A stretch of DNA of 64,000 bases, taken from positions 1 through 64,000 of IMG/VR virus record IMGVR_UViG_3300037755_000850. One strand, given 5' to 3'. The notes beneath the pieces were generated by a model, which was not told the DNA's origin, ran no database searches, and was given only the letters and a program-made list of their open reading frames with translations. A program made the position numbers and the translations under genes. The DNA is from a virus. Shown piece by piece: positions 851 through 42,950 of the stretch; positions within the stretch are counted from its first letter, which is position 1; the number at the start of each line of letters is the position of its first letter.

Positions 851-1894
851 ATGAAACTATCTAGCACAATGCCCGCATGGGCACAATGGGTGCTGGGGAT
901 TTTTATTGCATTCCTCTGCCTGAGTGCGGGTATCGCATCGCTGGGCATGAACGTGATATTCGGCCTCCAGTTCTCGCCTATCATGGGAGCCATCTTCGGC
1001 CTGTCTGACGTGCTCAAGATCGCTCTCCCCGCTGTCGCCGTGGTTCTGGGCTGGCAGTGGAAAACCAAGCTGCTCTATGTCGGAGCAGCGCTGTTCTCGG
1101 TGTTCTGCGCCCTGAACTATCTGGCCGAAACCCAGGGCAATACGCTCCTGGAAGCTCAGCATCGCGCTGCGATGATCAGCACGGCCAAGCAGGATGCCGA
1201 AACTGCAAAAGCACAACTCGCCAAGATCGACGAGCTGCTTGGCTCATCTGAGCTGAAAGATCTGCATACGCAGAAAACTGACGCTGTTTCACGTGAAACA
1301 GAACGCGGTGGCTGTGGACCGAAATGCGAAAGCATCCAGAAGGAAGCCGACGCCCTGCTGGTTCGTCTTGGCAAGGCCAAGCGCCGCGAAGACCTTGAAG
1401 CCAAGGTGGCAGAGGCAACCAAATTGCTCAAGGCCACCCCAGAAAAGACAGTCGGATCGGTCGGCATCATCGCCAGTTTGACCGGGATCGGCAAGGAACA
1501 GATCGGCACCAGCTTTACCATCGGGTCGTCCCTGTTCGCTCTGTTTCTGCTTGAGCTGACCGCAATGCTGTCAAGCTATGGCATGGCCATGCTGCGCAGC
1601 GCCTATACGGTCAGCAACAAGACGGTGAAAACCCGTGTTCGTCAGGCGGCACCGCTTGATGACATCGGTGAGCCGGTTAGAATGACCAAGGAGATCGCGC
1701 TGCATAAAGTCCAGATGCGGATCTTCCATTCGCCGGGCAAGATGCTTGTGTCTTCCCGCCGTGCGCTGGCTGAAGAGCTAGGCGTTGCCAAGTCAACCTT
1801 CAATGACTGGTGCAATGAATGGCAGGACGCCGGACTGGTCATCACCACCAAGCGCGGCAATGAAACTGTCTTTGCCGCACAGGAAGCAGCATAA
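851..1894 (+). CDS. membrane protein with coiled coil and C-terminal winged HTH
   Basis: AAGGAG RBS; 3 N-terminal hydrophobic helices, a coiled coil, a further TM, then SRRALAEELGVAKSTFNDWCNEWQDAG. Confidence 0.8.
   Translation: MKLSSTMPAWAQWVLGIFIAFLCLSAGIASLGMNVIFGLQFSPIMGAIFGLSDVLKIALPAVAVVLGWQWKTKLLYVGAALFSVFCALNYLAETQGNTLLEAQHRAAMISTAKQDAETAKAQLAKIDELLGSSELKDLHTQKTDAVSRETERGGCGPKCESIQKEADALLVRLGKAKRREDLEAKVAEATKLLKATPEKTVGSVGIIASLTGIGKEQIGTSFTIGSSLFALFLLELTAMLSSYGMAMLRSAYTVSNKTVKTRVRQAAPLDDIGEPVRMTKEIALHKVQMRIFHSPGKMLVSSRRALAEELGVAKSTFNDWCNEWQDAGLVITTKRGNETVFAAQEAA
1285..1300. repeat. parS: parS site (perfect), intragenic
   Basis: TGTTTCACGTGAAACA. Confidence 0.85.
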
Positions 1895-2433: not shown

Positions 2434-2748
2434 TCAGCCGCCAGGCAACGCGTCTACAAAGTATTCCTTCCCGATCACGATGATATCCTCATCTTCACCT
2501 ACACGGTGACCTAGCTCCGCCAAGACCTCTGCCGATGGCTTCTTGCCGATGATGACGAACTGATCGCCATGCTCATGAACCGATGGACAATCACCCATCG
2601 GGCACTTGGCAACATGCACAGCGGGGCATGACGCGGACACTTCGCAATCCTCTGGCGTCACATCCTCAAGTTCATAGACAGCGGGACAAGCCCCTATCGT
2701 ACACCGCAGATGCGCGGGTGTCAGATCCACAATCTTCACCATATCCAT
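2434..2748 (-). CDS. Cys-rich repeat protein
   Basis: three C-x4/5-CP(A/S)V repeats; AAGGAG RBS. Confidence 0.65.
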   Translation of the reverse strand: MDMVKIVDLTPAHLRCTIGACPAVYELEDVTPEDCEVSASCPAVHVAKCPMGDCPSVHEHGDQFVIIGKKPSAEVLAELGHRVGEDEDIIVIGKEYFVDALPGG

Positions 2749-3383
2749 CACTCCTTCTTACCGTCAGTTTTCTTATTTGCCCCCAGCTGCTTCCATAATT
2801 CAAGAAAAGCCTCATTGCTGGAGATCTCAATTTCCTCTTTTACACGCCATTTTTCGGGTTGGCGGACGGATAACCAGTGCTTGATTGCTCCGACATCGGG
2901 CGGAACATGCTCTTTATACGGAACAACAACCGGAACCCCTTTGTTTTGAAAGATTTTTACCGCGTCATAGGTGTAGCCCGCAGCCCGCTCAGCAAGCGTT
3001 CTTTCGATGCGCTGATCAAAAACATTGCCTAATTTTCCGAAGGCCGCATCGAAGTCAGGATATGTCTGCCGCCACTTCCACACCGTAGCGTTGTTTATTC
3101 CGAACAGATCGGCTATCTCAGAGATCAGAGCGCCCTTTTCCAGCGCCCTCTTCGCCACATGGGCGTATTGTGGATTATATTTGTATACGGGACGGCCCCG
3201 CTTGGATTTTGGGCGAGGAAGCTTGATGTCTCCAGGGAGTTCTTCTAGATCTTCCAGATCTTCAATGTCCTCTATGACGGGAGGATCGAGGGGACTGGCT
3301 TTCTTCCTTGTGCCTTTCTTTTTTTCGGCACGATCAGCAGCAGACTTGATGTCCTCCTTTGTTGGTTTCTTTCTGGGTGGCAT
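2748..3383 (-). CDS. terminase small subunit-like HTH protein
   Basis: GRP..KY, EIADLFGINNATVWKWRQTYPDF, LAERAAGY, HVPPDVGAIKHWL..RQPEKWR motifs typical of TerS. Confidence 0.75.
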   Translation of the reverse strand: MPPRKKPTKEDIKSAADRAEKKKGTRKKASPLDPPVIEDIEDLEDLEELPGDIKLPRPKSKRGRPVYKYNPQYAHVAKRALEKGALISEIADLFGINNATVWKWRQTYPDFDAAFGKLGNVFDQRIERTLAERAAGYTYDAVKIFQNKGVPVVVPYKEHVPPDVGAIKHWLSVRQPEKWRVKEEIEISSNEAFLELWKQLGANKKTDGKKE

Positions 3384-3785: not shown

Positions 3786-3974
3786 TATGATCTGCCCATA
3801 GCGGGCGTGTTTCTTGTATATTCATCTTCCGCTTTAATGTGAACCTGTTCAACCAGATCCATGACCTCATTCATTGTGGCTGGGCCGGTAACTGTCATTC
3901 TGCGCAGTGGCTTGCCGGGTTCTTCGATTTCTAACGTGACGATTATTATATCAGCGTCTGTCATTATGACAATC

Positions 3975-4920: not shown

Positions 4921-4993
4921 CCCAATGCAAGGCCAATAGCCAGGATGACTATGATATAGAAGGTTATGATCTTTTCAAGACCGTCCAGCATCA

Positions 4994-5350
4994 TCATGCA
5001 TCCGAGTTCTCAAGGAACGAGATCCGCCACCCGGCTCCGAACTGGAACACCTGATCACCAGTCAGAGTTGGCGATGAGGCGACCGCTTCGACCAGCTCGG
5101 CATTTTCTGTGGTGATCTCGTAATTGACGGTCTTACCTTCCTGTACTTGAACCATCAGAAGCTTTGCATGGGCTGGTGCGGTGTCAGCCGATGAGTTGAC
5201 CGCCGTGCTTGTGTTGGCGGTAAGTTGTTCCTTGGCCAGATAAGGCTGCTTGAGCTGGGAGACGGAGTCAGTGGACAGTCTGCCACTGGCTGGGGATACT
5301 GGCGCGCTGATCAGGGCGGAATGGGTAAACAGGCGGACAATGGCGGTCAT
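4994..5350 (-). CDS. hypothetical protein (beta-rich)
   Basis: AAGGAG RBS, preceded by a parS site. Confidence 0.65.
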   Translation of the reverse strand: MTAIVRLFTHSALISAPVSPASGRLSTDSVSQLKQPYLAKEQLTANTSTAVNSSADTAPAHAKLLMVQVQEGKTVNYEITTENAELVEAVASSPTLTGDQVFQFGAGWRISFLENSDA

Positions 5351-5367
5351 TGGGTGTCTCCTTCACC

Positions 5368-5383
5368 TGTTTCACGTGAAACA
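5368..5383. repeat. parS: parS site (perfect)
   Basis: TGTTTCACGTGAAACA. Confidence 0.85.
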
Positions 5384-5433
5384 TTGGGGTCTGCAACGTC
5401 AGGGATTTGATCAGCGTCCAGTTTCACACCCCC

Positions 5434-5449
5434 TGTTTCACATGAAACA
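5434..5449. repeat. parS: parS-like site (1 mismatch)
   Basis: TGTTTCACATGAAACA. Confidence 0.65.
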
Positions 5450-5754
5450 CTCTTCTCGACCGGAGCAAAATAGGTTCTCAGCTCATGGGCTGATAGCGCT
5501 GTGGTCAGTTCATAGATGCGGGTGGCGCAATCGCGGATTTCCTGAACTCTGGCTTCAGTACTGAAGAGATGCTCAGCCTGGGCGAGATAACCACGGATCA
5601 GCATGCGGTATTCGGTGGCGATCCGATCCGGGGTGAAACAATGATCGGGTGGAAATCGGAAACTGTTATCAAGAATGGGTGGCTTCATGGGTGCGCCTGT
5701 GCAAGAGGTTTGCGGCCATAATGCAGTGATTCGCAATAGAAACAAAGCTTCAAA

Positions 5755-6810: not shown

Positions 6811-7452
6811 TCAGCCTTTTCCTTCAGCTTGTCGCGCTTGTTCGCCACGATTTTTGGGCGGTATTTTTCGCTTCGAAGATCTTTTGCCACCGGATTTCGG
6901 CGCAGCCGACCAGCTTGTTGAGATTTTTTCATTTCGGCCCAGCAGCGCGTTGATCTTGGAGCGGTGATCGGAACACAACCATAGATTCCAGAACGCCAGC
7001 CCATGATCAAGACCGGCGAAAATTCTCTGTACCTTCATGTCTGATCCGCAAAATTCACAGCGGCTCGGGCGTTCCTCTTCCCTGATGCGGTAATAATCAT
7101 TCACCTGGGTCCGCATCCGGTGCTTGTCCACGAAGTCTTGTGACTGCCTCCTTAGTTCATAGCGCTTCTTCCCGGCCCTCGCCCCTTCCTTGGCGTAATT
7201 TTCCGCCCGGCACTGTCCGCATATGGCCTGCCCAGGCTGGCGCTCCCGAATATGACACTTGATGCAATAATTGGCGCAGCCGGGGCAGAAATGTCTTGGA
7301 TGGGGAACAGGATTGCGGTGACACCGCCTACACTTGTACTTCAAAGCAATCCTCCCATCAGACACAATCCCGCAATATATAAGACAGAACGCCGTAAAAA
7401 TCAACAGCGTAAATTTTATAAAAAAAACGCCATTTTTATATTGACTATCCAA
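6811..7452 (-). CDS. Cys-rich putative zinc-binding protein (start uncertain)
   Basis: five CxxC pairs. Confidence 0.5.
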   Translation of the reverse strand: MDSQYKNGVFFIKFTLLIFTAFCLIYCGIVSDGRIALKYKCRRCHRNPVPHPRHFCPGCANYCIKCHIRERQPGQAICGQCRAENYAKEGARAGKKRYELRRQSQDFVDKHRMRTQVNDYYRIREEERPSRCEFCGSDMKVQRIFAGLDHGLAFWNLWLCSDHRSKINALLGRNEKISTSWSAAPKSGGKRSSKRKIPPKNRGEQARQAEGKG

Positions 7453-7469
7453 ACGGAATTCTTTACATT
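7441..7469 (+). promoter_or_regulatory. sigma70-type promoter of the parS-punctuated operon
   Basis: TTGACT-N17-TACATT preceded by A/T tracts (UP-element-like). Confidence 0.65.
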
Positions 7470-7653
7470 CAAATCATCGGACGACGATAGAGCCGATACG
7501 GTAAAATGGTTCCGCCAAGCAAGAGAGAACCATACGTCTGGTGGTCGCAGTATCTACGGGTGCTGCATAACATGGCCGGTCTCCAGCGGGTCTTCTTTGA
7601 AGACTTACACAGAGTGGTAACAGCAAAGCCCTCTCTTTGTAAGTCTTTGTGGA

Positions 7654-7669
7654 TGTTCCACGTGAAACA
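7654..7669. repeat. parS: parS site
   Basis: TGTTCCACGTGAAACA. Confidence 0.85.
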
Positions 7670-7689
7670 CTCATGCAATGGAGAAAAGC

Positions 7690-7884
7690 ATGCGTTTTTT
7701 TCTTGTGTCATTTGCCTTCACTGGCGGCTTTGGTCGTCGCCTGTTCGGCACCGATGCCCAGATCGACGAAGAACAGATCCTGTTTTGGGAAGACGAGTGC
7801 AGCAAAAAAATCCGGGGCTCAGACAGACCTGTTTCCATCATCGCAATTTCGGAGATCGATGGTCCAGTTAAGCCTGTCGCTTGA
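7690..7884 (+). CDS. hypothetical protein
   Basis: GGAG RBS, ATG 7690, flanked by parS sites. Confidence 0.6.
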   Translation: MRFFLVSFAFTGGFGRRLFGTDAQIDEEQILFWEDECSKKIRGSDRPVSIIAISEIDGPVKPVA

Positions 7885-7885
7885 A

Positions 7886-7901
7886 CGTTTCACGTGAAAC
7901 G
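7886..7901. repeat. parS: parS site
   Basis: CGTTTCACGTGAAACG, 1 nt after the stop codon. Confidence 0.85.
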
Positions 7902-7923
7902 AGGTGCCATAAAGGAGGAAGAC

Positions 7924-8652
7924 ATGGCCGACAGAAAAGACCGCATTGTTCGTATTATCCAGGCCCTGAAGGCCAAGACCGCCGATCGCGGCGCGAGCGA
8001 GAATGAAGCCATGGAGGCGGCATCGAAGATCGCGGCCCTGATGGATCAATATGACATTTCCGAAGGCGATCTACGCGAGGCGGGCGAAGAGGCTCTCAAA
8101 ACCGAAGCCGTCAGCATCGACAAGCTTTGGCAAGAGCTGCTGATGAAATGCTGTGCGCCTGCAATCAGCAAACTCACCGGGACGCTCGCCGTGGGGAAAT
8201 TTGTGTCCGCCCGCCGCTGTGCCTATCAGTTCATCGGGGCTGACAATGATGTGTTCTTCGCCAAGTGGTTGGCTGAGACCATCGTCGATTTTGTCCTCAC
8301 CGGATTGAGAGAAGAAGAGGCGAGACGCTATTTCCCGACAGCCTCAGCGCGCTCGGCCTATCGCAATGGCTATCTGATCGGGGCTGGTCTCAGGATCAAC
8401 GCCCGGATCGAGGCCATGCTTGCCGATCGCAATCAGGTGCGGGCCTCGGCCAACCTTCCCGCTCTTGCCTCCAAGGCCGTGGTCATCAAGGACCGGCTGA
8501 TGTCGCAAGGTGAGAAGTTCGAGCCCAGCCAGAACAGATTTAACGGCAAGGCCAGTACGGCAGGCCGTGAAGCTGGCGCTGAGCGCGGCGAGGCTGTCCA
8601 GCTTGGCCGTCCGCTGTCGAGGGAAGATCAGCGCGCTCTCACGGCGCGCTGA
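7924..8652 (+). CDS. DUF2786-like domain protein
   Basis: N-terminal RIIQALKAKTADRGASENEAMEAASKIAALMDQY; AAGGAGG RBS. Confidence 0.75.
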   Translation: MADRKDRIVRIIQALKAKTADRGASENEAMEAASKIAALMDQYDISEGDLREAGEEALKTEAVSIDKLWQELLMKCCAPAISKLTGTLAVGKFVSARRCAYQFIGADNDVFFAKWLAETIVDFVLTGLREEEARRYFPTASARSAYRNGYLIGAGLRINARIEAMLADRNQVRASANLPALASKAVVIKDRLMSQGEKFEPSQNRFNGKASTAGREAGAERGEAVQLGRPLSREDQRALTAR

Positions 8653-8653
8653 T

Positions 8654-8669
8654 TGTTCCACGTGAAACA
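8654..8669. repeat. parS: parS site
   Basis: TGTTCCACGTGAAACA, 1 nt after the stop codon. Confidence 0.85.
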
Positions 8670-8680
8670 GCATCGGAGGA

Positions 8681-8893
8681 ATGATGGCTCTTACATATGG
8701 TCAATCTGAAATGCTTCGCTTGGTCAAGCGCAGTCTGGACAAGGCGGACGGGGAATGGGCTGATGTCAGCGACCAGCTTTGGCCGTTCGCGCAAGAGATC
8801 AAACGCCATCTGCCTGAACTGGTAGAACTGCATCCCGACAAGCAAGCCATCCGGCTCACGCATGAAGGGGTTACGGTTCTGAAATACATCTGA
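8681..8893 (+). CDS. hypothetical protein
   Basis: GGAGG RBS. Confidence 0.65.
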   Translation: MMALTYGQSEMLRLVKRSLDKADGEWADVSDQLWPFAQEIKRHLPELVELHPDKQAIRLTHEGVTVLKYI

Positions 8894-8894
8894 A

Positions 8895-8910
8895 CGTTTC
8901 ACGTGAAACA
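8895..8910. repeat. parS: parS site
   Basis: CGTTTCACGTGAAACA, 1 nt after the stop codon. Confidence 0.85.
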
Positions 8911-8923
8911 AAGGAGCTTTGCC

Positions 8924-9184
8924 ATGAGCAAGGAAGATATCTACGACGCTGAGATTGCACCCCTGATGAATGAGATTCTCAAGATCTGCCAGGCGCACAA
9001 GATTGCGATGGTCGCCAGCTTCGCCACGCCATCAGACACGTCTGACGATCTGTATGTTTCGTCTGCTCTGATGGATGAAAATGGTGAGTTTCCAGGGTTC
9101 ATGGAGTGGATGGCCAAGATCCAGAGTCGGTCGATCGGAACCATTGAAGAGGAAAATGTCGGCGCGAGGTTTAACCAGCCGTAA
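8924..9184 (+). CDS. hypothetical phage protein
   Basis: AAGGAG RBS; KEDIYDAEIAPLMNEILKICQAHKI motif common in phage proteins. Confidence 0.7.
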   Translation: MSKEDIYDAEIAPLMNEILKICQAHKIAMVASFATPSDTSDDLYVSSALMDENGEFPGFMEWMAKIQSRSIGTIEEENVGARFNQP

Positions 9185-9189
9185 GTCCG

Positions 9190-9205
9190 TGTTTCACGTG
9201 AAACA
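9190..9205. repeat. parS: parS site (perfect)
   Basis: TGTTTCACGTGAAACA, 5 nt after the stop codon. Confidence 0.85.
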
Positions 9206-9224
9206 TAACATGAGGAATAAACCG

Positions 9225-9734
9225 ATGGGCTATACGACTCGCTTTAAGGGCACTCTCAACTTCGTCAATGACATGAAGGTGTCGGAACTAGCGTTCCTGA
9301 ATGAATCGCTGGAGATGAACCCTAGTGATCCAGATGGCCCGCCTGAATATATTGGGCTGAAAATCAATCCCCAATTGACCGGTCTTGTCGATAGTGGTGA
9401 CGAAAAAATCTACAACATGGCCAAGACCATCAACTGGCTCACTGAGCGCATGCGCAGGGTAAATCCGGCATTCCAGCTCCATGGCCAGTTCATCTGCACT
9501 GGTGAAGATGGCGAGGTCTGGAAAATCGCGCTCAACAATGCGGGAGTCGCCAACGAGTTGGATATCGATCTCGATGCTGACGCCAAGGACGCGGCGAAAA
9601 CCAAGCGCTGGGAAGCGCTGTGGTCCGAACTCTCCAAAACCGAACTGGAAGCCAGGTCGGGATCGACATCGGTCAGTTACGAAACCCGCATGATGAAGGC
9701 ATTCGACGCCGCGCGCAAAGCGCTGGTTGAATAG
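9225..9734 (+). CDS. conserved phage protein (MGYTT-type)
   Basis: GAGG RBS; MGYTTRFKG...GDEKIYN...GED motifs. Confidence 0.7.
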   Translation: MGYTTRFKGTLNFVNDMKVSELAFLNESLEMNPSDPDGPPEYIGLKINPQLTGLVDSGDEKIYNMAKTINWLTERMRRVNPAFQLHGQFICTGEDGEVWKIALNNAGVANELDIDLDADAKDAAKTKRWEALWSELSKTELEARSGSTSVSYETRMMKAFDAARKALVE

Positions 9735-9750
9735 TGTTTCACGTGAAACA
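9735..9750. repeat. parS: parS site (perfect)
   Basis: TGTTTCACGTGAAACA abutting the stop codon; palindrome extends to 20 bp. Confidence 0.85.
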
Positions 9751-9770
9751 CTGATATTGGAGCAAATAAA

Positions 9771-10142
9771 ATGAGCAATCAGACTGAGTATGATTTCACC
9801 CCCAAGGGCCTGAAGATTGAAGGCGCTTACGAGAATGACCGCAACATTCAGAGTTCGGATCTGTTCAAGGCCATCATCCGCGAGGCTTGCGGGGCCAAGG
9901 ACGTGATCATCGCCCATCACCTGACCTATGTGGTTGAGGAAGAGTGGGACGATGGTTTCAAATACCAGATCATCGAAGAAATCCCCTCAGCAGACGCTCT
10001 GATCTTTGATCATGATATCGCGAGGAAAATCTGGGGTCTGGATTGGCGCGATGTGCTGGCAAGGCTGGCGCTGACTCCAATCAGTGAGCGCGATGCTGAA
10101 CTTGCGCATCTCTATTACAGGCGCAAGAACAAACCCGCCTGA
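9771..10142 (+). CDS. hypothetical protein
   Basis: GGAG RBS. Confidence 0.7.
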   Translation: MSNQTEYDFTPKGLKIEGAYENDRNIQSSDLFKAIIREACGAKDVIIAHHLTYVVEEEWDDGFKYQIIEEIPSADALIFDHDIARKIWGLDWRDVLARLALTPISERDAELAHLYYRRKNKPA

Positions 10143-10158
10143 CGTTTCACGTGAAACA
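10143..10158. repeat. parS: parS site
   Basis: CGTTTCACGTGAAACA abutting the stop codon. Confidence 0.85.
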
Positions 10159-10180
10159 CTCAATCCAATGGAGCTTAACC

Positions 10181-10342
10181 ATGACCTTCCTGACTTTCGG
10201 CATTTTCCTGATCATCCTCGCCATTACCGGCTTCGCCGCCTATTGCGTCGGCTACTGGCACGGTGAAATGCGAGCGGGTCGCAATTATCGCACCATGGCC
10301 GCTGTCGTGAATGGCACCCACCAATCCCAGCGCACGGTGTAA
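10181..10342 (+). CDS. small membrane protein
   Basis: GGAG RBS, one TM. Confidence 0.6.
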   Translation: MTFLTFGIFLIILAITGFAAYCVGYWHGEMRAGRNYRTMAAVVNGTHQSQRTV

Positions 10343-10373
10343 ATCCAATTTCCTGTTCAATGGAGTTTTTGTT

Positions 10374-10847
10374 ATGCCTCAGTCTGATGCCGATCCCCAT
10401 GATCGGCTGAAAATCGGTATTTTCATTGTCGCTGTCACGGCCACCGTGCAAGGCGTCATTCTGTTTGGCAACTCGACCTATGCGCTGCATACGTTCGGTG
10501 CGCCATTCCTCATCATCTATCTGGCGGCAGCGTCCTGCTACATCGCTTGGCCGTGGATCGGCGATTTCGTCGATGACTTTGCCCATTCCGGCGCGATCCG
10601 GGTTGGGCTGTTTGCCTTCTGCCTGTGGATCACCTTTGAAGAGCATGTTCATGCGGCGCAGCATTTCAAAGCGCCGGAAGGGCTCACCGGGTTCTGGTCA
10701 TTCTTCTTCGAACATGATTCAGCCAAGCTGATCAGTCTTGGCATCATCGTCGCGGCGCTGCTCGGTGTCGTGGAATTGATGCACCACCTTCAGCATCACG
10801 GCGCAAGCCTGATCAAGGGTGCGCACAAGGACATCAAGTCGTCCTGA
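10374..10847 (+). CDS. multi-pass membrane protein
   Basis: GGAG RBS, about 4 TM segments. Confidence 0.7.
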   Translation: MPQSDADPHDRLKIGIFIVAVTATVQGVILFGNSTYALHTFGAPFLIIYLAAASCYIAWPWIGDFVDDFAHSGAIRVGLFAFCLWITFEEHVHAAQHFKAPEGLTGFWSFFFEHDSAKLISLGIIVAALLGVVELMHHLQHHGASLIKGAHKDIKSS

Positions 10848-10848
10848 T

Positions 10849-10892
10849 TGTTTCACGTGGAACATTGGATGTGCCGTGTTCCACGTGAAACA
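10849..10892. repeat. parS: pair of parS sites in inverted orientation
   Basis: TGTTTCACGTGGAACA (10849-10864) and TGTTCCACGTGAAACA (10877-10892). Confidence 0.85.
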
Positions 10893-10958
10893 TTTTCCCG
10901 AGCGGGATACGAAACCTCAATGTCAAATTCATTCCTACCAGAGACACGGAAACCCATC

Positions 10959-12281
10959 ATGGATGCCCAGACGAAAACAGCCCTCGACACGATGCAGGAA
11001 ACCTTGATCAAACAGAACGAGATCCTGCAACGCTTGAACCAGGACGCTCTCAGACAGGCGATCGTCGTCCATATTGACGGTGAGATCGTCGTGGTGGCCT
11101 CACCCAATGGTTTCATCGAGGTGCTGAGGCCAGAGTTCACAATCAAGCCAGGCGATGCCGTCACCCTGACGGACAAGGGACAGATCTTGCGGATGGCCGC
11201 AAAGACGCCCGCCTCCGGCCCCCTCTCCACCGTTACCCGAATTATCAATGAACGCGCCTGCGAGATTGGCGGCGAAGGCATGGCCCGTGTCGCCATGACA
11301 TGTGGTCATACCGTCAAGGTTGGCGATGCCGTTGCCACCGATCAAACCGGATGTCTGATCTTGGGGGTGATTCCACCTGATGACAAGCAGAAGGTTGTCT
11401 CGTCCACATTTGAACCGCTACTCTGGGATCAGATTGGTGGTCAGCTCGAAGCACAAGCCGCTTTGCAAGAGGCTGTGGTGATGCCGCAGCTTTATCCGGA
11501 TATCTTTGCCTTTTATGGCAAGAAGGTTCCGGCAGGAATTCTATTGTATGGTCCTCCGGGTAATGGTAAAACCTTACTTGGACGTGCCGTGGCGACGGCC
11601 TTGAATGGGGAGGCGGGCGGCTTCTTTCCTGTCAAGGGGCCGGAAATCCTTGATGCTTATGTCGGCGAGTCCGAACGCAAGCTGCGTTCGCTGTTCAAGG
11701 CAGCACGGCAGCACAAGGCCGAAACCGGTAAGCCGGGCGTCATCTTTATTGATGAGGCCGACAGCATTCTGGCCCGGCGCAATGATCGCTCGGTGTCGGG
11801 GATGGAGAAAACCATCGTGCCAACCTTTCTGGCTGAAACCGATGGTCTGGAAGCCTCTGCCGCGATTGTCATTTTGGCCACCAATCGACCTGAGGCGCTG
11901 GATGAGGCCGTGGTTCGTGAAGGCCGGATGGATCGCAAGATCGAGGTGACCCGGCCTGGCGTCGAGGACAGCGAAGCCATTCTGGCTGTGCATTTGAGCA
12001 AACTGCCTTTGGCCGAAGGCGTCAAGCTGGATGAGGTGGTGAAGACGGTTGCCTTTGAGATCTTTGCCGGGAACCGCACCATTGCCAAGTCGCACAAGAC
12101 GCTGGCGGATATTGTTTCAGGGGCCATGCTGGCCGGGCTGGTCGAACAGGCCAAGTCAGCGGCATTGCACCGGGATCTGACATCGGAAGCCAAGCAGCCA
12201 AGCGGGATTTCGATGCCAGACATGCTGGCGGCGCTGACGCGGGCGCAGCTGGAGAACCGCAATATCGCGCATATGTCATGA
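10959..12281 (+). CDS. AAA+ ATPase, ARC/Mpa (proteasomal unfoldase)-like
   Basis: N-terminal coiled coil and two beta-rich (OB-like) segments, Walker A GPPGNGKT, VKGPEIL..YVGESER pore loop, Walker B IFIDEAD, SRH ATNRP...DEAVVREGRMD, late SGAML..LV..AK. Confidence 0.85.
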   Translation: MDAQTKTALDTMQETLIKQNEILQRLNQDALRQAIVVHIDGEIVVVASPNGFIEVLRPEFTIKPGDAVTLTDKGQILRMAAKTPASGPLSTVTRIINERACEIGGEGMARVAMTCGHTVKVGDAVATDQTGCLILGVIPPDDKQKVVSSTFEPLLWDQIGGQLEAQAALQEAVVMPQLYPDIFAFYGKKVPAGILLYGPPGNGKTLLGRAVATALNGEAGGFFPVKGPEILDAYVGESERKLRSLFKAARQHKAETGKPGVIFIDEADSILARRNDRSVSGMEKTIVPTFLAETDGLEASAAIVILATNRPEALDEAVVREGRMDRKIEVTRPGVEDSEAILAVHLSKLPLAEGVKLDEVVKTVAFEIFAGNRTIAKSHKTLADIVSGAMLAGLVEQAKSAALHRDLTSEAKQPSGISMPDMLAALTRAQLENRNIAHMS

Positions 12282-12289
12282 CGAGAAAT

Positions 12290-12346
12290 GCACCTCCGGC
12301 GATGGCCCCGCATTCCTGCCCATGTTGCCGGAGGTGCTGGGTTTTT
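12290..12346 (+). terminator. long hairpin / terminator
   Basis: GCACCTCCGGCGA...TTGCCGGAGGTGC then GGGTTTTT. Confidence 0.5.
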
Positions 12347-12420
12347 ACTGAAGGTCGGAACAAGGGCCTGTGTCTCTATGGCGGTCCTTTTTCCGGTTAT
12401 GAGGGTGAAGACAAGGAGCG

Positions 12421-12436
12421 TGTTCCACGTGAAACA
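12421..12436. repeat. parS: parS site overlapping a GTG start codon
   Basis: TGTTCCACGTGAAACA directly after AAGGAG. Confidence 0.85.
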
Positions 12437-12629
12437 AAAGACAGCAAAGCCCGGTGATCCCATTGCCGATGCAAGTACCGAGATCGGTAGCGAAGATATC
12501 GAGATCCCGGATATTTCCGAGGCTTTGAAGGCGGCGCAGGATGCAAAGAATGTCCGCCGAGAATGGGTAATCTGTCGCGAGTGCGGTGAGCGGCACTGCC
12601 CGTATGGTTACTGGATCACCATAGGTTAA
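12429..12629 (+). CDS. small acidic/Cys-tailed peptide, paralog 1
   Basis: AAGGAG 12413-12418, GTG 12429; MKQKTAKPGD...DIEIPDISEAL...CRECGERHC. Confidence 0.6.
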   Translation: MKQKTAKPGDPIADASTEIGSEDIEIPDISEALKAAQDAKNVRREWVICRECGERHCPYGYWITIG

Positions 12630-12642
12630 AAAGGAGAAAGCG

Positions 12643-12861
12643 ATGCAGAAGCAACGATCTGTCACCCCTTTTGATGGGGTGGGAATTGGCGGTGATGGTG
12701 ACGCCGCTGATCTGGATGTGCCTGATATTTCCAAGGCCATCTTGATGGCCAGCGAAACCGACCGCCGAAGCGCCAGAAGTTTCAATGGCGTTTCGGGGCG
12801 CTGGCAAGCCTGCCCTTGTGGCCGGTATGACTGCCGAGCGGCCAGATTCGTGCCTGATTAA
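12643..12861 (+). CDS. small acidic/Cys-tailed peptide, paralog 2
   Basis: AAGGAG RBS; MQKQRSVTPFD...DLDVPDISKAI...CPCGRYDC. Confidence 0.65.
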   Translation: MQKQRSVTPFDGVGIGGDGDAADLDVPDISKAILMASETDRRSARSFNGVSGRWQACPCGRYDCRAARFVPD

Positions 12862-12897
12862 CCCCCAAGCCTGCCTCATAAACAAAAGGATTATTAC

Positions 12898-14481
12898 ATG
12901 TCTGACGAAAACAAGCTCGACATCATCGAGTTCATGCAGAAGGCTGTCAGTGACAGCATCGAACAGGCGCGCAATCCCAAGAAGGAAACTGATGTGCTCT
13001 GGGAAGGCACGCATGTCAAGCTGCCAGCAGAACCAAAGCCGATGTCGCTGCGCTCTGGCATTCAGGTGCTGCTCGACCGGGAAGCGCAGGACAACCAGCA
13101 GTTCGATCTCTTCGAGACCGTTCCCGGTATGCCGCTTGATGCCGCTGTCGCCTTTGTGCACGTTCTCAAGAAACGCTATGGCTGGGCAGCAGCCAAGACC
13201 AAGAAAACCTGGTTCGGTGATGTTCAGCCCGACATGAAGATGGTCAAGACCGGTCCCAATTCCGAGGATTATGTTGAGGTTCCCGTGGGTTTGTTCAAGC
13301 TCCACGATATCTCGACCGAGATCGAGACCGGGTTTACCCGTCCGCAGAACCGCCGCAAGTCGCAGTTCATGGATTTCTATATCCGTGGCACCGTGACCTA
13401 TGCTGACCGCAAGGTGATCATGGAGCTGATCTCTGCCACGCGCAAGCATCTGGAGAAAAACTCGATTTATCGTGGCAAGACGATGCGGCTCAGTGTCGAT
13501 GAAAGCGGCAGTCTTGACGCCCTGATCGAGCCGGAATTCATCGACCTCACCACGATCGACGAAAACTCGCTGGTGCTGAACGAAAACATTCAGGGCCTTG
13601 TTGACGTGAACATCAAGACCCCGATCGCCAAGACTGAAAATTGCCGTAAACATAATATTCCGCTCAAGCGGGGAATTCTGCTTTACGGACCTTACGGCAC
13701 AGGCAAATCGCTGACGGCGGCTGTCGTTGGCAAGCTGGCCTATCAGAATGGCTGGACTTATGTCACCGTTGACCGGGCTGAAGCCTTGGCGGAAACGCTG
13801 GAATTTGCCCGACAGTTCCAGCCCTGCGTGGTCTTTGCCGAAGACATTGATCGGGTCATCGACCATAAACGTTCGGACGATGCCAACGAGATCATCAACA
13901 CGATCGACTCGGTGCTCAACAAGCGGGATGAAGTGATCACGGTATTGACCACCAATCACATCGAAAAGCTCCCTCCGGTCATGCTCCGGAACGGGCGGCT
14001 TGATGCGCTGATCCCGATCGACAAGCCTGATGCGGTGGCCTCGATCAAGCTGGTTCGTTACTATGCCGGGGATCTGATCCGGCCTGATGATCCCCTCACA
14101 GGGCTCGGTGACATGCTGGCCGGGTTTATTCCGGCAACCATTCGCGAGGTTGTCGAACGGTCAAAGCTGGCGATGCTGATGAATGACCGCAAACATCTGA
14201 CGACCGATGATCTCAAGGCGTCAGCGACAGGGCTCAAGGCTCATGCTGATCTGCTTGTCGATAAGCGCAAGGAGATCAATGACGCCGAACTGCTTGCAGC
14301 TACGCTCAAGAGGGTCATTAATCCGCAGGCCGCTGACTATGGTGACAAGTTCGCCGATATGAGTGAATACGTCACAAATGTCGATGGTAATGTTGATGAA
14401 GCTCAGCGCAAGCTGGATGTCATCATCAAGATGGTCAAGACCACAGCCGACAGCCTGAACGGCAAGGCCGCGCGGCGCTGA
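12898..14481 (+). CDS. AAA+ ATPase with long N-terminal domain
   Basis: Walker A GPYGTGKS, Walker B VVFAEDID, TTNH...MLRNGRLD. Confidence 0.9.
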   Translation: MSDENKLDIIEFMQKAVSDSIEQARNPKKETDVLWEGTHVKLPAEPKPMSLRSGIQVLLDREAQDNQQFDLFETVPGMPLDAAVAFVHVLKKRYGWAAAKTKKTWFGDVQPDMKMVKTGPNSEDYVEVPVGLFKLHDISTEIETGFTRPQNRRKSQFMDFYIRGTVTYADRKVIMELISATRKHLEKNSIYRGKTMRLSVDESGSLDALIEPEFIDLTTIDENSLVLNENIQGLVDVNIKTPIAKTENCRKHNIPLKRGILLYGPYGTGKSLTAAVVGKLAYQNGWTYVTVDRAEALAETLEFARQFQPCVVFAEDIDRVIDHKRSDDANEIINTIDSVLNKRDEVITVLTTNHIEKLPPVMLRNGRLDALIPIDKPDAVASIKLVRYYAGDLIRPDDPLTGLGDMLAGFIPATIREVVERSKLAMLMNDRKHLTTDDLKASATGLKAHADLLVDKRKEINDAELLAATLKRVINPQAADYGDKFADMSEYVTNVDGNVDEAQRKLDVIIKMVKTTADSLNGKAARR

Positions 14482-41948: not shown

Positions 41949-42023
41949 GCCGGGGTAGCTCAGTGGTAGAGCACGCGACTGAAAATTGCGGTGTCGGACG
42001 TTCAAACCGTTCCCCCGGCACCA
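41949..42023 (+). tRNA. tRNA-Phe(GAA)
   Basis: full cloverleaf, loop CTGAAAA, encoded CCA. Confidence 0.9.
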
Positions 42024-42024
42024 C

Positions 42025-42035
42025 GCTCTTTGACA
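42025..42035 (+). promoter_or_regulatory. boxA-like antitermination element
   Basis: GCTCTTTGACA. Confidence 0.5.
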
Positions 42036-42045
42036 TTTTCATTTC

Positions 42046-42118
42046 TGCGGGTGGGCATAGTGCTCAGGGGGGTCTCATAAGCCTCCATTGCCGGGGGCAG
42101 TACCCGGACCCGCTACCA
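42046..42118 (+). tRNA. atypical tRNA-Met(CAT), initiator-like
   Basis: acceptor TGCGGGT/ACCCGCT with 1:72 mismatch, loop CTCATAA, T-loop GGCAGTA, reduced D-arm, CCA. Confidence 0.65.
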
Positions 42119-42120
42119 TC

Positions 42121-42525
42121 TTGCAGTTCCCCATGAAGGTTCTGCACTATGCGGGGGATCTGGTCCATCGCACGGGTTCCAGGTCAGATCATTAACCCTC
42201 ATGCTAATGATCACCCCGCGCCCATTCCAGCTCTGTTTTGCTCATTTTCAGAGCTGGTGTACAGACGGCCCGGTGTTTCCGTGGAAGGTCATGGCGGGCC
42301 GTCTGCTTACAAGGTTCGGGCAGGAGCCTTTCGCCGTGCACGGCGAAAGGCTAGCCGCTAGTGAGGACGACAGCGCACCCTCCCTGCCCATCTAAGACCT
42401 GCTTCGGCAGGCCAGCCGGGGATAAGCTCCCGGCTGTAAGGTTTCGAGTTCTGGCGGCGGCGCAAATGCGCACAAAACTAGATGCGAGGATGTCCCGGCG
42501 ATGCTAGGCCCTTCGCCGCCAGATG
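42121..42525 (+). ncRNA. highly structured non-coding tract within the tRNA array
   Basis: series of strong hairpins plus a CCA-ended tRNA-sized element at 42150-42224. Confidence 0.5.
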
Positions 42526-42527
42526 TC

Positions 42528-42602
42528 TTGGGTGTAGCTTAGTGGCTAAAGCAACGGTCTCCAAAACCGTGATCGCCGGTTCGATTCCGGTCACCCTTGC
42601 CA
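42528..42602 (+). tRNA. tRNA-Trp(CCA) with mismatched acceptor end
   Basis: loop CTCCAAA, canonical D and T arms; acceptor TTGGGTG/CACCCTT. Confidence 0.8.
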
Positions 42603-42619
42603 TTCTATTAGATGATTAT

Positions 42620-42705
42620 GCGGGGTCCGCAAGGATAAGATCTACAGACACCATGGATAGGTCTGTAGCGTAGAAGCGTCGGGGAGACCTGCCCGCCCCG
42701 CTCCA
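42620..42705 (+). ncRNA. tRNA-like RNA with non-canonical arms
   Basis: GCGGGGT/GCCCCGC + T + CCA enclosing TCC-GCAA-GGA, CTACAGAC/GTCTGTAG and CGGG/CCCG hairpins. Confidence 0.5.
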
Positions 42706-42710
42706 GTTTC

Positions 42711-42786
42711 GGATGGGTAGCTCAGTGGTCAGAGCAGCGGTCTTTTAAATCGCTGGTCGAGGGTTCGAATCCCTCCCCATCCTCCA
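42711..42786 (+). tRNA. tRNA-Lys(TTT)
   Basis: full cloverleaf, loop CTTTTAA, CCA. Confidence 0.92.
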
Positions 42787-42787
42787 A

Positions 42788-42863
42788 GGCTCTGTCGTTC
42801 AATGGTCAGGACGCCGGGTTGTCAACTCGGTAACGCTGGGTTCAATTCCCGCCAGAGCCGCCA
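42788..42863 (+). tRNA. tRNA-Asp(GTC)
   Basis: cloverleaf, loop TTGTCAA, bulged T-stem, CCA. Confidence 0.85.
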
Positions 42864-42874
42864 GAGCCGCCAGA

Positions 42875-42950
42875 GGGACCATCGTCTAAAGGTCAGGATA
42901 CGGCTCTTTCAAAGCTGTGATGGCGAGTTCAAGTCTCCCTGGTCCCGCCA
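42875..42950 (+). tRNA. tRNA-Glu(TTC)
   Basis: cloverleaf, loop CTTTCAA, bulged T-stem, CCA. Confidence 0.85.

Follow-up and report, generated by a model that had tools for sequence, protein, structure and literature searches.

Why would a bacteriophage in which no partition protein is found carry, at nearly every gene junction of an early operon, the centromere site of a bacterial chromosome? The question is raised by positions 7,654 to 12,436 of a stretch of 64,000 nucleotides of viral DNA (hereafter, the window), which makes up the first 64 kb of an IMG/VR virus record of 96,347 bp (IMGVR_UViG_3300037755_000850) from a sediment metagenome. An earlier reading of this stretch, referred to here as the original prediction, listed ten 16-bp palindromes in that segment and three more upstream as matches to parS, the site at which the bacterial partition protein ParB loads, and proposed that the phage uses this non-coding DNA to hijack the ParB of its host. 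In this work, we describe parS sites that are of chromosomal type by sequence and that form the seams at which neighboring genes are exchanged, and we weigh the proposal that host ParB reads them.

Chromosomal-type parS sites in the early region

A consensus search allowing up to 3 mismatches returned thirteen 16-bp palindromes fitting the chromosomal parS consensus TGTTNCACGTGAAACA with at most 2 mismatches each, and their starts are exactly those originally predicted: 1285, 5368, 5434, 7654, 7886, 8654, 8895, 9190, 9735, 10143, 10849, 10877, and 12421. Four sites are perfect, eight carry one mismatch, and one carries two. The number expected by chance is 0.21, and none of 100 shuffles reached 13. 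All of the sites lie within the first 12.5 kb of the 96,347-bp genome, where the 13 occupy 11 kb and ten of these fall within 4.8 kb. The claim that no full site occurs in the remaining ~51 kb of the window holds and can be extended, as the remaining 84 kb of the record contain zero additional sites even with 4 mismatches allowed.

In the position matrix, 11 of the 16 positions (2-4, 6-8, 10, 11, and 13-15) are constant in all 13 sites, and the variation is confined to positions 1 (C in three sites), 5 (C in four), 9 (A in one), 12 (G in one), and 16 (G in one). G2 and A7, by which parS differs from the Noc site, are constant in both halves of every site; this criterion comes from a study in which ParB proteins of 17 clades retain parS-versus-Noc specificity (PMC7383237). 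The commonest variant, C5 (G12 on the other strand), is shared with phage phi29, whose parS-type sites carry it. The repeat spans exactly 16 bp, its flanking bases show no conservation, and neither a longer repeat unit nor a second motif was found when the region was examined for them. By sequence, the 13 palindromes are genuine chromosomal-type parS sites.

Four relatives of the phage were compared, namely G001 (102 kb, with a portal protein 68% identical), G012 (76 kb), and two metagenome contigs. They have in common with the phage two AAA+ genes, a VWA gene, and the structural module. No parS was found in them at up to 3 mismatches, and their syntenic region contains no other repeated palindrome. 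Because the four relatives have neither parS nor a substitute palindrome, the array can be regarded as a gain of the phage's own lineage. It sits in a hypervariable early/accessory region, and no homologues of the small operon genes were found in the parS-less relatives. Positions 7000-13000 gave no blastn match among cultured phages, and a viral-contig search with the AAA+ ATPase as a single protein gave none either.

Three of the sites lie within coding sequence, all read in frame as V-S-(R/C)-E-T; since one frame of the palindrome contains TGA, a coding parS is confined to the two remaining frames. The perfect site at 1285..1300 lies within the conserved gene 851-1894 (codons V-S-R-E-T) and, in an ungapped alignment, corresponds to different residues in the homologue from the parS-less G001. 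A second perfect site, 5368..5383, occupies C-terminal tail codons of the minus-strand gene 5347-5688 and lies 18 nt upstream of gene 4994-5350 in a leftward operon, while the site at 5434..5449, with one central mismatch (G9 to A), falls in the C-terminal tail of the same minus-strand gene. The hexamer CACGTG occurs 17 times genome-wide, 12 times within parS and 5 times elsewhere in 96 kb, compared with ~19 copies expected for the whole genome. Both the site inside gene 851-1894 and the depletion of CACGTG elsewhere indicate that selection acts on the parS DNA word itself; outside parS the hexamer is avoided, perhaps through a host restriction system. Two strong sigma-70-type promoter-like sites were also noted on the minus strand of the leftward operon, at 3945-3972 (11/12) and 4951-4978 (10/12).

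parS as the seams between gene cassettes

The rightward operon comprises a promoter-like site, a leader with a parS, eight small genes, an AAA+ ATPase gene, and a terminator-like hairpin. The promoter-like site, of sigma-70 type (TTGACT-17-TACATT, 7441..7469, plus strand), would drive the operon, and the leader parS (7654..7669) lies 20 nt before the first gene. As had been predicted, parS is present at seven of eight junctions (7885 to 10919), at one of them in two copies. At these junctions, parS begins 0-5 nt past the stop codon. A leader of 11-22 nt, or of 27 nt in the case of the double site, then separates it from the start codon of the following gene and includes a ribosome-binding site.

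All genes of this operon are on the plus strand. Cassette gene 1 (7690..7884; 64 aa, no known family) is followed by a parS with the symmetric change C1 and G16 (7886..7901), gene 2 (7924..8652; 242 aa, DUF2786 and DUF7168) by a C5 site (8654..8669), gene 3 (8681..8893; 70 aa) by a C1 site (8895..8910), and gene 4 (8924..9184; 86 aa) by a perfect site (9190..9205). Gene 5 (9225..9734; 169 aa) has a perfect site abutting its TAG stop codon (9735..9750), and gene 6 (9771..10142; 123 aa) has a C1 site abutting its TGA (10143..10158). A two-gene cassette (10181..10847), which encodes predicted membrane proteins of 53 and 157 aa, contains the sole junction without parS and ends in the double site (10849..10892), whose two copies (G12 and C5) are exact reverse complements 12 nt apart. 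The last operon gene, the AAA+ ATPase (10920..12281), is conserved in the parS-less relatives and precedes a terminator-like hairpin with a U-run (12290..12347, plus strand; -31.2 kcal/mol, z -3.9). Many of the small operon proteins have no known family, and the predicted structure of the DUF2786/DUF7168 protein (mean predicted local distance difference test score, pLDDT, of 52) was too poor for a fold search. The last parS (12421..12436; C5) overlaps a GTG at 12429-12431, which had been described as a start codon; this GTG is in frame with a 66-codon open reading frame (ORF) and lies 10 nt after AAGGAG, making it a plausible start.

Evidence that these units behave as cassettes comes from a relative in a soil metagenome of a different study (X2), whose contigs were compared with positions 7400-12500 and are roughly 85-93% identical where aligned; the joints and differences described below are among the matches listed. 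Region 7417-7616, around the promoter-like site, is conserved in the soil relative. Homology runs to the last base of the leader site (7669) and no further, and a different first gene follows. Cassette gene 1 is covered by no X2 contig among the matches listed, and another gene stands in front of gene 2. The stop codon of gene 2 (8652/8653) is joined directly to the parS at 9735, with a cross-over point at the 8654 site, so that three genes, including gene 3, are missing. Elsewhere, after gene 4 (to 9185) come a new, intact parS and the leader of gene 2 (from 7914), an arrangement that places gene 4 upstream of gene 2 and alters the gene order. Because the left flank of this parS matches one parent junction and the right flank the other, the cross-over lies inside the 16 bp.

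Further along, X2 contigs cover the site at 8895, 9281-9622 within gene 5 is without cover among the matches listed, and homology restarts at 10143/10144, with one contig spanning 10143-10840. At the end of the operon, the ATPase stop codon (12279) is joined to the unit of ribosome-binding site plus parS at 12413, and the terminator-like hairpin (12290-12347) is skipped. At the double site, the differences listed fall between and after the two parS copies, with none within them. Since the assembly word has 31 letters, more than the 16 bp of the repeat, these joints are not assembly chimeras. In the source sample, contigs start or stop homology at 9188 and 9753, the sites bounding gene 5, of which an 80% identical homologue is found on another short contig, and homologues of gene 2 (74-98%) are likewise found on short contigs; scans of viral and genome contigs for such close relatives gave no match.

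parS is kept at the junctions while the intervening genes are permuted, replaced, or lost, and the sites are mosaic seams. Cassettes are exchanged at parS behind one upstream promoter-like site and with one terminator-like hairpin. The original prediction had offered a recombination joint for shuffling single-gene cassettes as an alternative to ParB hijacking, and had suggested that related phages be scanned for the motif and for cassette-like variation between sites. The joints at or inside parS support that alternative directly. The soil relative varies at parS, and the four other relatives are without it. A string, CAATGGAG, covering the ribosome-binding-site region, is common to three cassette leaders (7670-7689, 10159-10180, and 10343-10373), which hints that leader-plus-site modules spread via duplication or recombination.

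Candidate readers and functions of the sites

Six-frame profile searches of the whole 96 kb, with positive controls, found no ParB_N, HTH_ParB, or ParA (PF02195, PF17762, and PF13614; absent at E<=1), no tyrosine integrase (PF00589), no serine recombinase (PF00239), and no S24 (CI/LexA-type) protease. As the phage is without ParB, ParA, integrase, serine recombinase, and CI-type protease, the ParB of the host is the likely reader of the sites. By its gene content, the phage looks virulent. We also considered whether the phage might be a plasmid-prophage that encodes its own partition system, or might be temperate, and rejected both, since ParA, ParB, integrase, resolvase, and S24 repressor were not found.

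The explanation that we favor, with somewhat more confidence than doubt, is that the sites would be loading sites for the ParB-CTP clamp of the host, so that the phage would be positioned or inherited by ParABS and would compete for ParB. Host ParB would load at parS and coat the ~12-kb early region, which flanks a divergent promoter zone on both sides, the array being a dense putative copy of the chromosomal centromere on the 12.5-kb early/accessory region. By analogy with phi29 and Spo0J, and with the genomic island SGI1 and IncC ParB, host ParABS would position or pass on unintegrated phage DNA, and the many parS copies of a replicating phage would compete with the chromosome for ParB. As to the benefit, positioning or inheritance of phage DNA is proposed tentatively, a role as a ParB sponge is doubtful, and ParB-dependent dampening of the operon is quite improbable. 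The placement of the sites gene by gene has a simpler cause, for which the evidence is direct. In the operon, parS occupies the intergenic spacers that separate a stop codon from the ribosome-binding site downstream, the sole free DNA, in which a palindrome of 16 bp carries no cost. The sites are also exchange points between related phages, and each cassette therefore carries one parS; with free spacers and exchange at the sites, the junction-by-junction pattern needs no special function. Exchange at parS would probably be catalyzed by the ERF-family single-strand annealing protein of the phage (29529..30116, plus strand; PF04404, E 3e-23).

Hijacking of host ParB through non-coding DNA, as first proposed, fits all the tests applied (the sequence of the sites, ParB not found in the phage, and the precedent of phi29), with binding being what we infer; the principle is not new. 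Host parS on a ParB-less lytic phage has been known since phi29, for which five Spo0J sites, used via host Spo0J/ParB for spore entrapment, are reported (Meijer et al. 2005, as related in PMC2731898; PMC9437464). When phi29 was scanned identically, four one-mismatch sites and one three-mismatch site were obtained, and the four near-consensus sites carry C5/G12. Both phages are virulent-looking and ParB-less, both carry several copies of chromosomal parS with the C5/G12 variant, and one phi29 site (17243) stands directly after a stop codon, as at the junctions described above. They differ in that phi29 has 4-5 sites over 19 kb, mostly in genes, whereas here 13 sites lie in 11 kb, ten of these within 4.8 kb and at nearly every junction of an operon, where they form cassette boundaries; moreover, the host is here probably Gram-negative and non-sporulating. 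phi29 also has Spo0A boxes, which bind a master regulator of the host that suspends lytic development, while CtrA boxes (TTAA-N7-TTAA), the possible alphaproteobacterial analogue, number zero in the window, with one-mismatch matches at chance level.

A second precedent is SGI1, whose parS mimics hijack IncC ParABS, with the result that SGI1 is stabilized and the ParB-owning plasmid is displaced as copy number rises (PMC10954446). It is, similarly, a mobile element that carries nothing of the partition system of another replicon but the cis site, and the same dual effect is proposed for the phage. SGI1, however, is an integrative element with two sites that targets a plasmid ParB, and its effect was shown experimentally. 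With the arrays of chromosomal ParABS systems, the phage shares the identical 16-bp sequence and a centromere-like clustering density; it differs in being a phage, not a chromosome or plasmid, and a replicon without parA or parB. What makes the present case stand out is the density of the sites, their lineage-specific gain, and the cross-overs inside them. Literature phrase searches returned no description of parS arrays in phages of Gram-negative hosts, nor of parS as cassette joints.

Several points weigh against a role of host ParB as set out above. The array is dispensable in the phage family, since four relatives manage without parS. A partition benefit is doubtful because no sign of a dormant or carrier state was found, in the form of a repressor, an integrase, or CtrA boxes. 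Chromosomal ParB silencing is weak in most species, which makes dampening of the operon less likely. A length of 16 bp is short for efficient ERF-type annealing, and the evidence for cassettes comes from contigs of one other sample, with joints among the matches listed. Finally, the ParB of the host and its site preference are assumed.

A composite explanation, which we consider rather unlikely, is that parS forms an integron-like gene-capture system without an integrase, in which ParB bridging or the ERF annealase would join sites and single-gene cassettes would be swapped, gained, and lost in the early operon, possibly with other parS-bearing replicons, while the same sites would also recruit or soak up ParB. 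The likeness to integrons lies in one upstream promoter-like site, promoterless single-gene cassettes ending in a palindrome, an order that depends on the relative examined, and cross-overs at the palindromes. The phage differs in that no IntI or other site-specific recombinase was found and in that its 16-bp palindromes are perfect, compared with the 57-141-bp imperfect attC sites (R''/L''/L'/R'). An integron proper was rejected as a candidate, given that neither a tyrosine (PF00589) nor a serine (PF00239) recombinase was found and the sites are not attC-like.

It is also conceivable, with a lower probability, that the sites were selected mainly as recombination joints, allowing cassettes to be captured, lost, and reordered behind one promoter, and that the match to parS is secondary; the 16-bp linker might be common to other parS-bearing replicons of the same host. 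The cross-overs at or inside sites with changed gene order in the soil relative speak for it, as do the single upstream promoter-like site with a ribosome-binding site per cassette and one terminator, the ERF annealase, and the cassette genes without homologues in parS-less relatives. Nevertheless, a mere linker need not equal the universal parS at 16 positions, nor vary at position 5/12 as in phi29; three sites lie inside coding sequence, where they are unable to delimit cassettes; no site-specific recombinase was found in the genome; and any repeat at gene boundaries turns into a mosaic boundary as a by-product.

A DNA-binding protein of the phage, unlike ParB in type, has a slim chance of being the reader, either by blocking elongation in the manner of the stoperators of phage L5 or as a rival of host ParB on the chromosome. 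The intergenic placement at each junction resembles that of stoperators, many small operon proteins belong to no known family, helix-turn-helix (HTH) proteins are encoded nearby at 2748-3383, and a weak CI-type HTH is found at the end of gene 851-1894. Both HTH genes, however, are conserved in the site-less G001, and an operator private to the phage would hardly be expected to match the universal parS at all 16 positions. L5 stoperators and the KorB operators (OB) of plasmid RK2 are likewise many copies of one protein-binding site between the genes of a mobile element, but those elements encode their own reader, whereas no ParB fold, ParB HTH, or KorB-type reader was detected in the phage. Stoperators are, in addition, asymmetric and oriented, while the parS sites are palindromic and thus without orientation.

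That the palindromes act in RNA, as processing sites, stabilizing 3' hairpins, or attenuators between cistrons, is highly improbable, and the RNA processing hairpin mentioned in the original prediction is not supported. The sites do lie between cistrons on the sense strand, and the RNA of the double site, which immediately precedes the AAA+ ATPase gene, folds into a stem of 16 bp with UUUU behind it (-34.5 kcal/mol, z -4.45). However, the hairpins of single sites are weak (z -0.3 to -1.6), the minimum-energy fold contains no hairpin in four of nine contexts, and no U-run follows a single site. The change of T5 to C, present in four sites, puts C opposite A, a mismatch, in the sense RNA, while A12 to G, which wobble pairing tolerates, is seen in a single site. 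Three sites are within coding sequence, in two cases that of a gene on the opposite strand. Single sites were therefore rejected as intrinsic terminators or hairpins like repetitive extragenic palindromes on account of their weak folds and the lack of a U-run; only the double site qualifies, and it may act as an attenuator of transcription into the ATPase gene or as a cruciform.

We attach next to no probability to N4-type single-stranded DNA hairpin promoters for a virion-packaged RNA polymerase: a giant ORF in the virion module (53373-64991) does accompany palindromes in the early region, but its 3872-aa product has no RNA-polymerase family match or PDB sequence match (the PF00940 control also gave no match), G001 has the giant protein (56% identity in the matched stretch) without any repeated palindrome, and a sigma-70-type promoter-like site stands upstream of the operon.

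Genome context and significance

The two ends of the 96,347-bp record share an 86-bp repeat, and its genes encode a portal, a major head protein, a large terminase, the 3872-aa virion-module protein, a Prim-Pol, a GH19 endolysin, an RtcB ligase, and five tRNAs. An outer-membrane beta-barrel gene (PF13505; 39522-40190), a possible surface-modifying gene, serves as a clue to the host, its nearest clusters being Pseudomonadota porin/Omp25-like families. The portal is weakly similar to those of Rhizobium, Paracoccus, and Microcystis phages. Both the outer-membrane-protein gene and the weak portal similarity point to a Gram-negative host, and the former to a diderm member of the Pseudomonadota. A genome scan with the outer-membrane protein returned no near relative, and the protein atlas resolves it only to Pseudomonadota; the Caulobacter-type alphaproteobacterial host that had been evoked is thus not established by these clues.

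Several other features were noted. The 3872-aa ORF is on the minus strand and has no functionally annotated PHROG match and two weak PHROG matches of unknown function; its product is conserved in part in G001, where about 510 aa align at 56% identity. At 41949-42950 lie five clustered tRNA genes (Phe, Trp, Lys, Asp, and Glu), and the variable early region of G001 has tRNA-like repeats instead. The large terminase (835 aa; record positions 92547-95054, minus strand) also matches, in its first half, primase and DnaC-like P-loop PHROG families, and may be a fusion or the carrier of an inserted element. A 762-aa protein (record positions 82152-84440) has an HNH-endonuclease-like segment as well as an RtcB RNA ligase domain.

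parS is also carried by other viral contigs. An exact-match scan of IMG/VR returned more than 119 contigs with the parS 16-mer, several with 3-6 copies, and ParB_N was not found on any of the ten multi-parS contigs tested. Two complete contigs of phi29-like phages (L068 and L074; 15-16 kb, 37% GC, with inverted terminal repeats) carry three perfect parS each and no ParB, which fits the published phi29 case. Unrelated contigs with 50-54% GC have 3-5 perfect parS within 700-900 bp of apparently non-coding DNA, together with other shared short motifs (L064, 10535-11462; L025, 2657-3444; L076, 240-961); ParB_N was not found on L064 and L025. The source sediment sample, matched to 9733-10161, contains contigs with two parS 20 or 34 nt apart and a GC-rich spacer, which are probably bacterial chromosomes or other elements. 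A crude ORF-spanning test on the other viral contigs (56% versus 89% inside long ORFs) suggested an intergenic bias; it is noisy and was not relied on.

If host ParB does load on these sites, the strategy of phi29 would extend to a large phage whose host is probably a Gram-negative bacterium that does not sporulate, and parS would be present in a far higher dose than in phi29, with ten sites in 4.8 kb. Phage DNA might then ride ParABS to the pole or into a daughter cell, and the replicating copies, hundreds of them, might strip ParB from the chromosome, stalling segregation and division. Such arrays could serve as natural ParB sponges or as handles for labeling phage DNA. By the cassette evidence, the binding site of a host protein doubles as a seam for the shuffling of early phage genes, which typically function in host takeover or anti-defense, and parS seams offer a concrete and checkable mechanism for the mosaicism of phage early regions.

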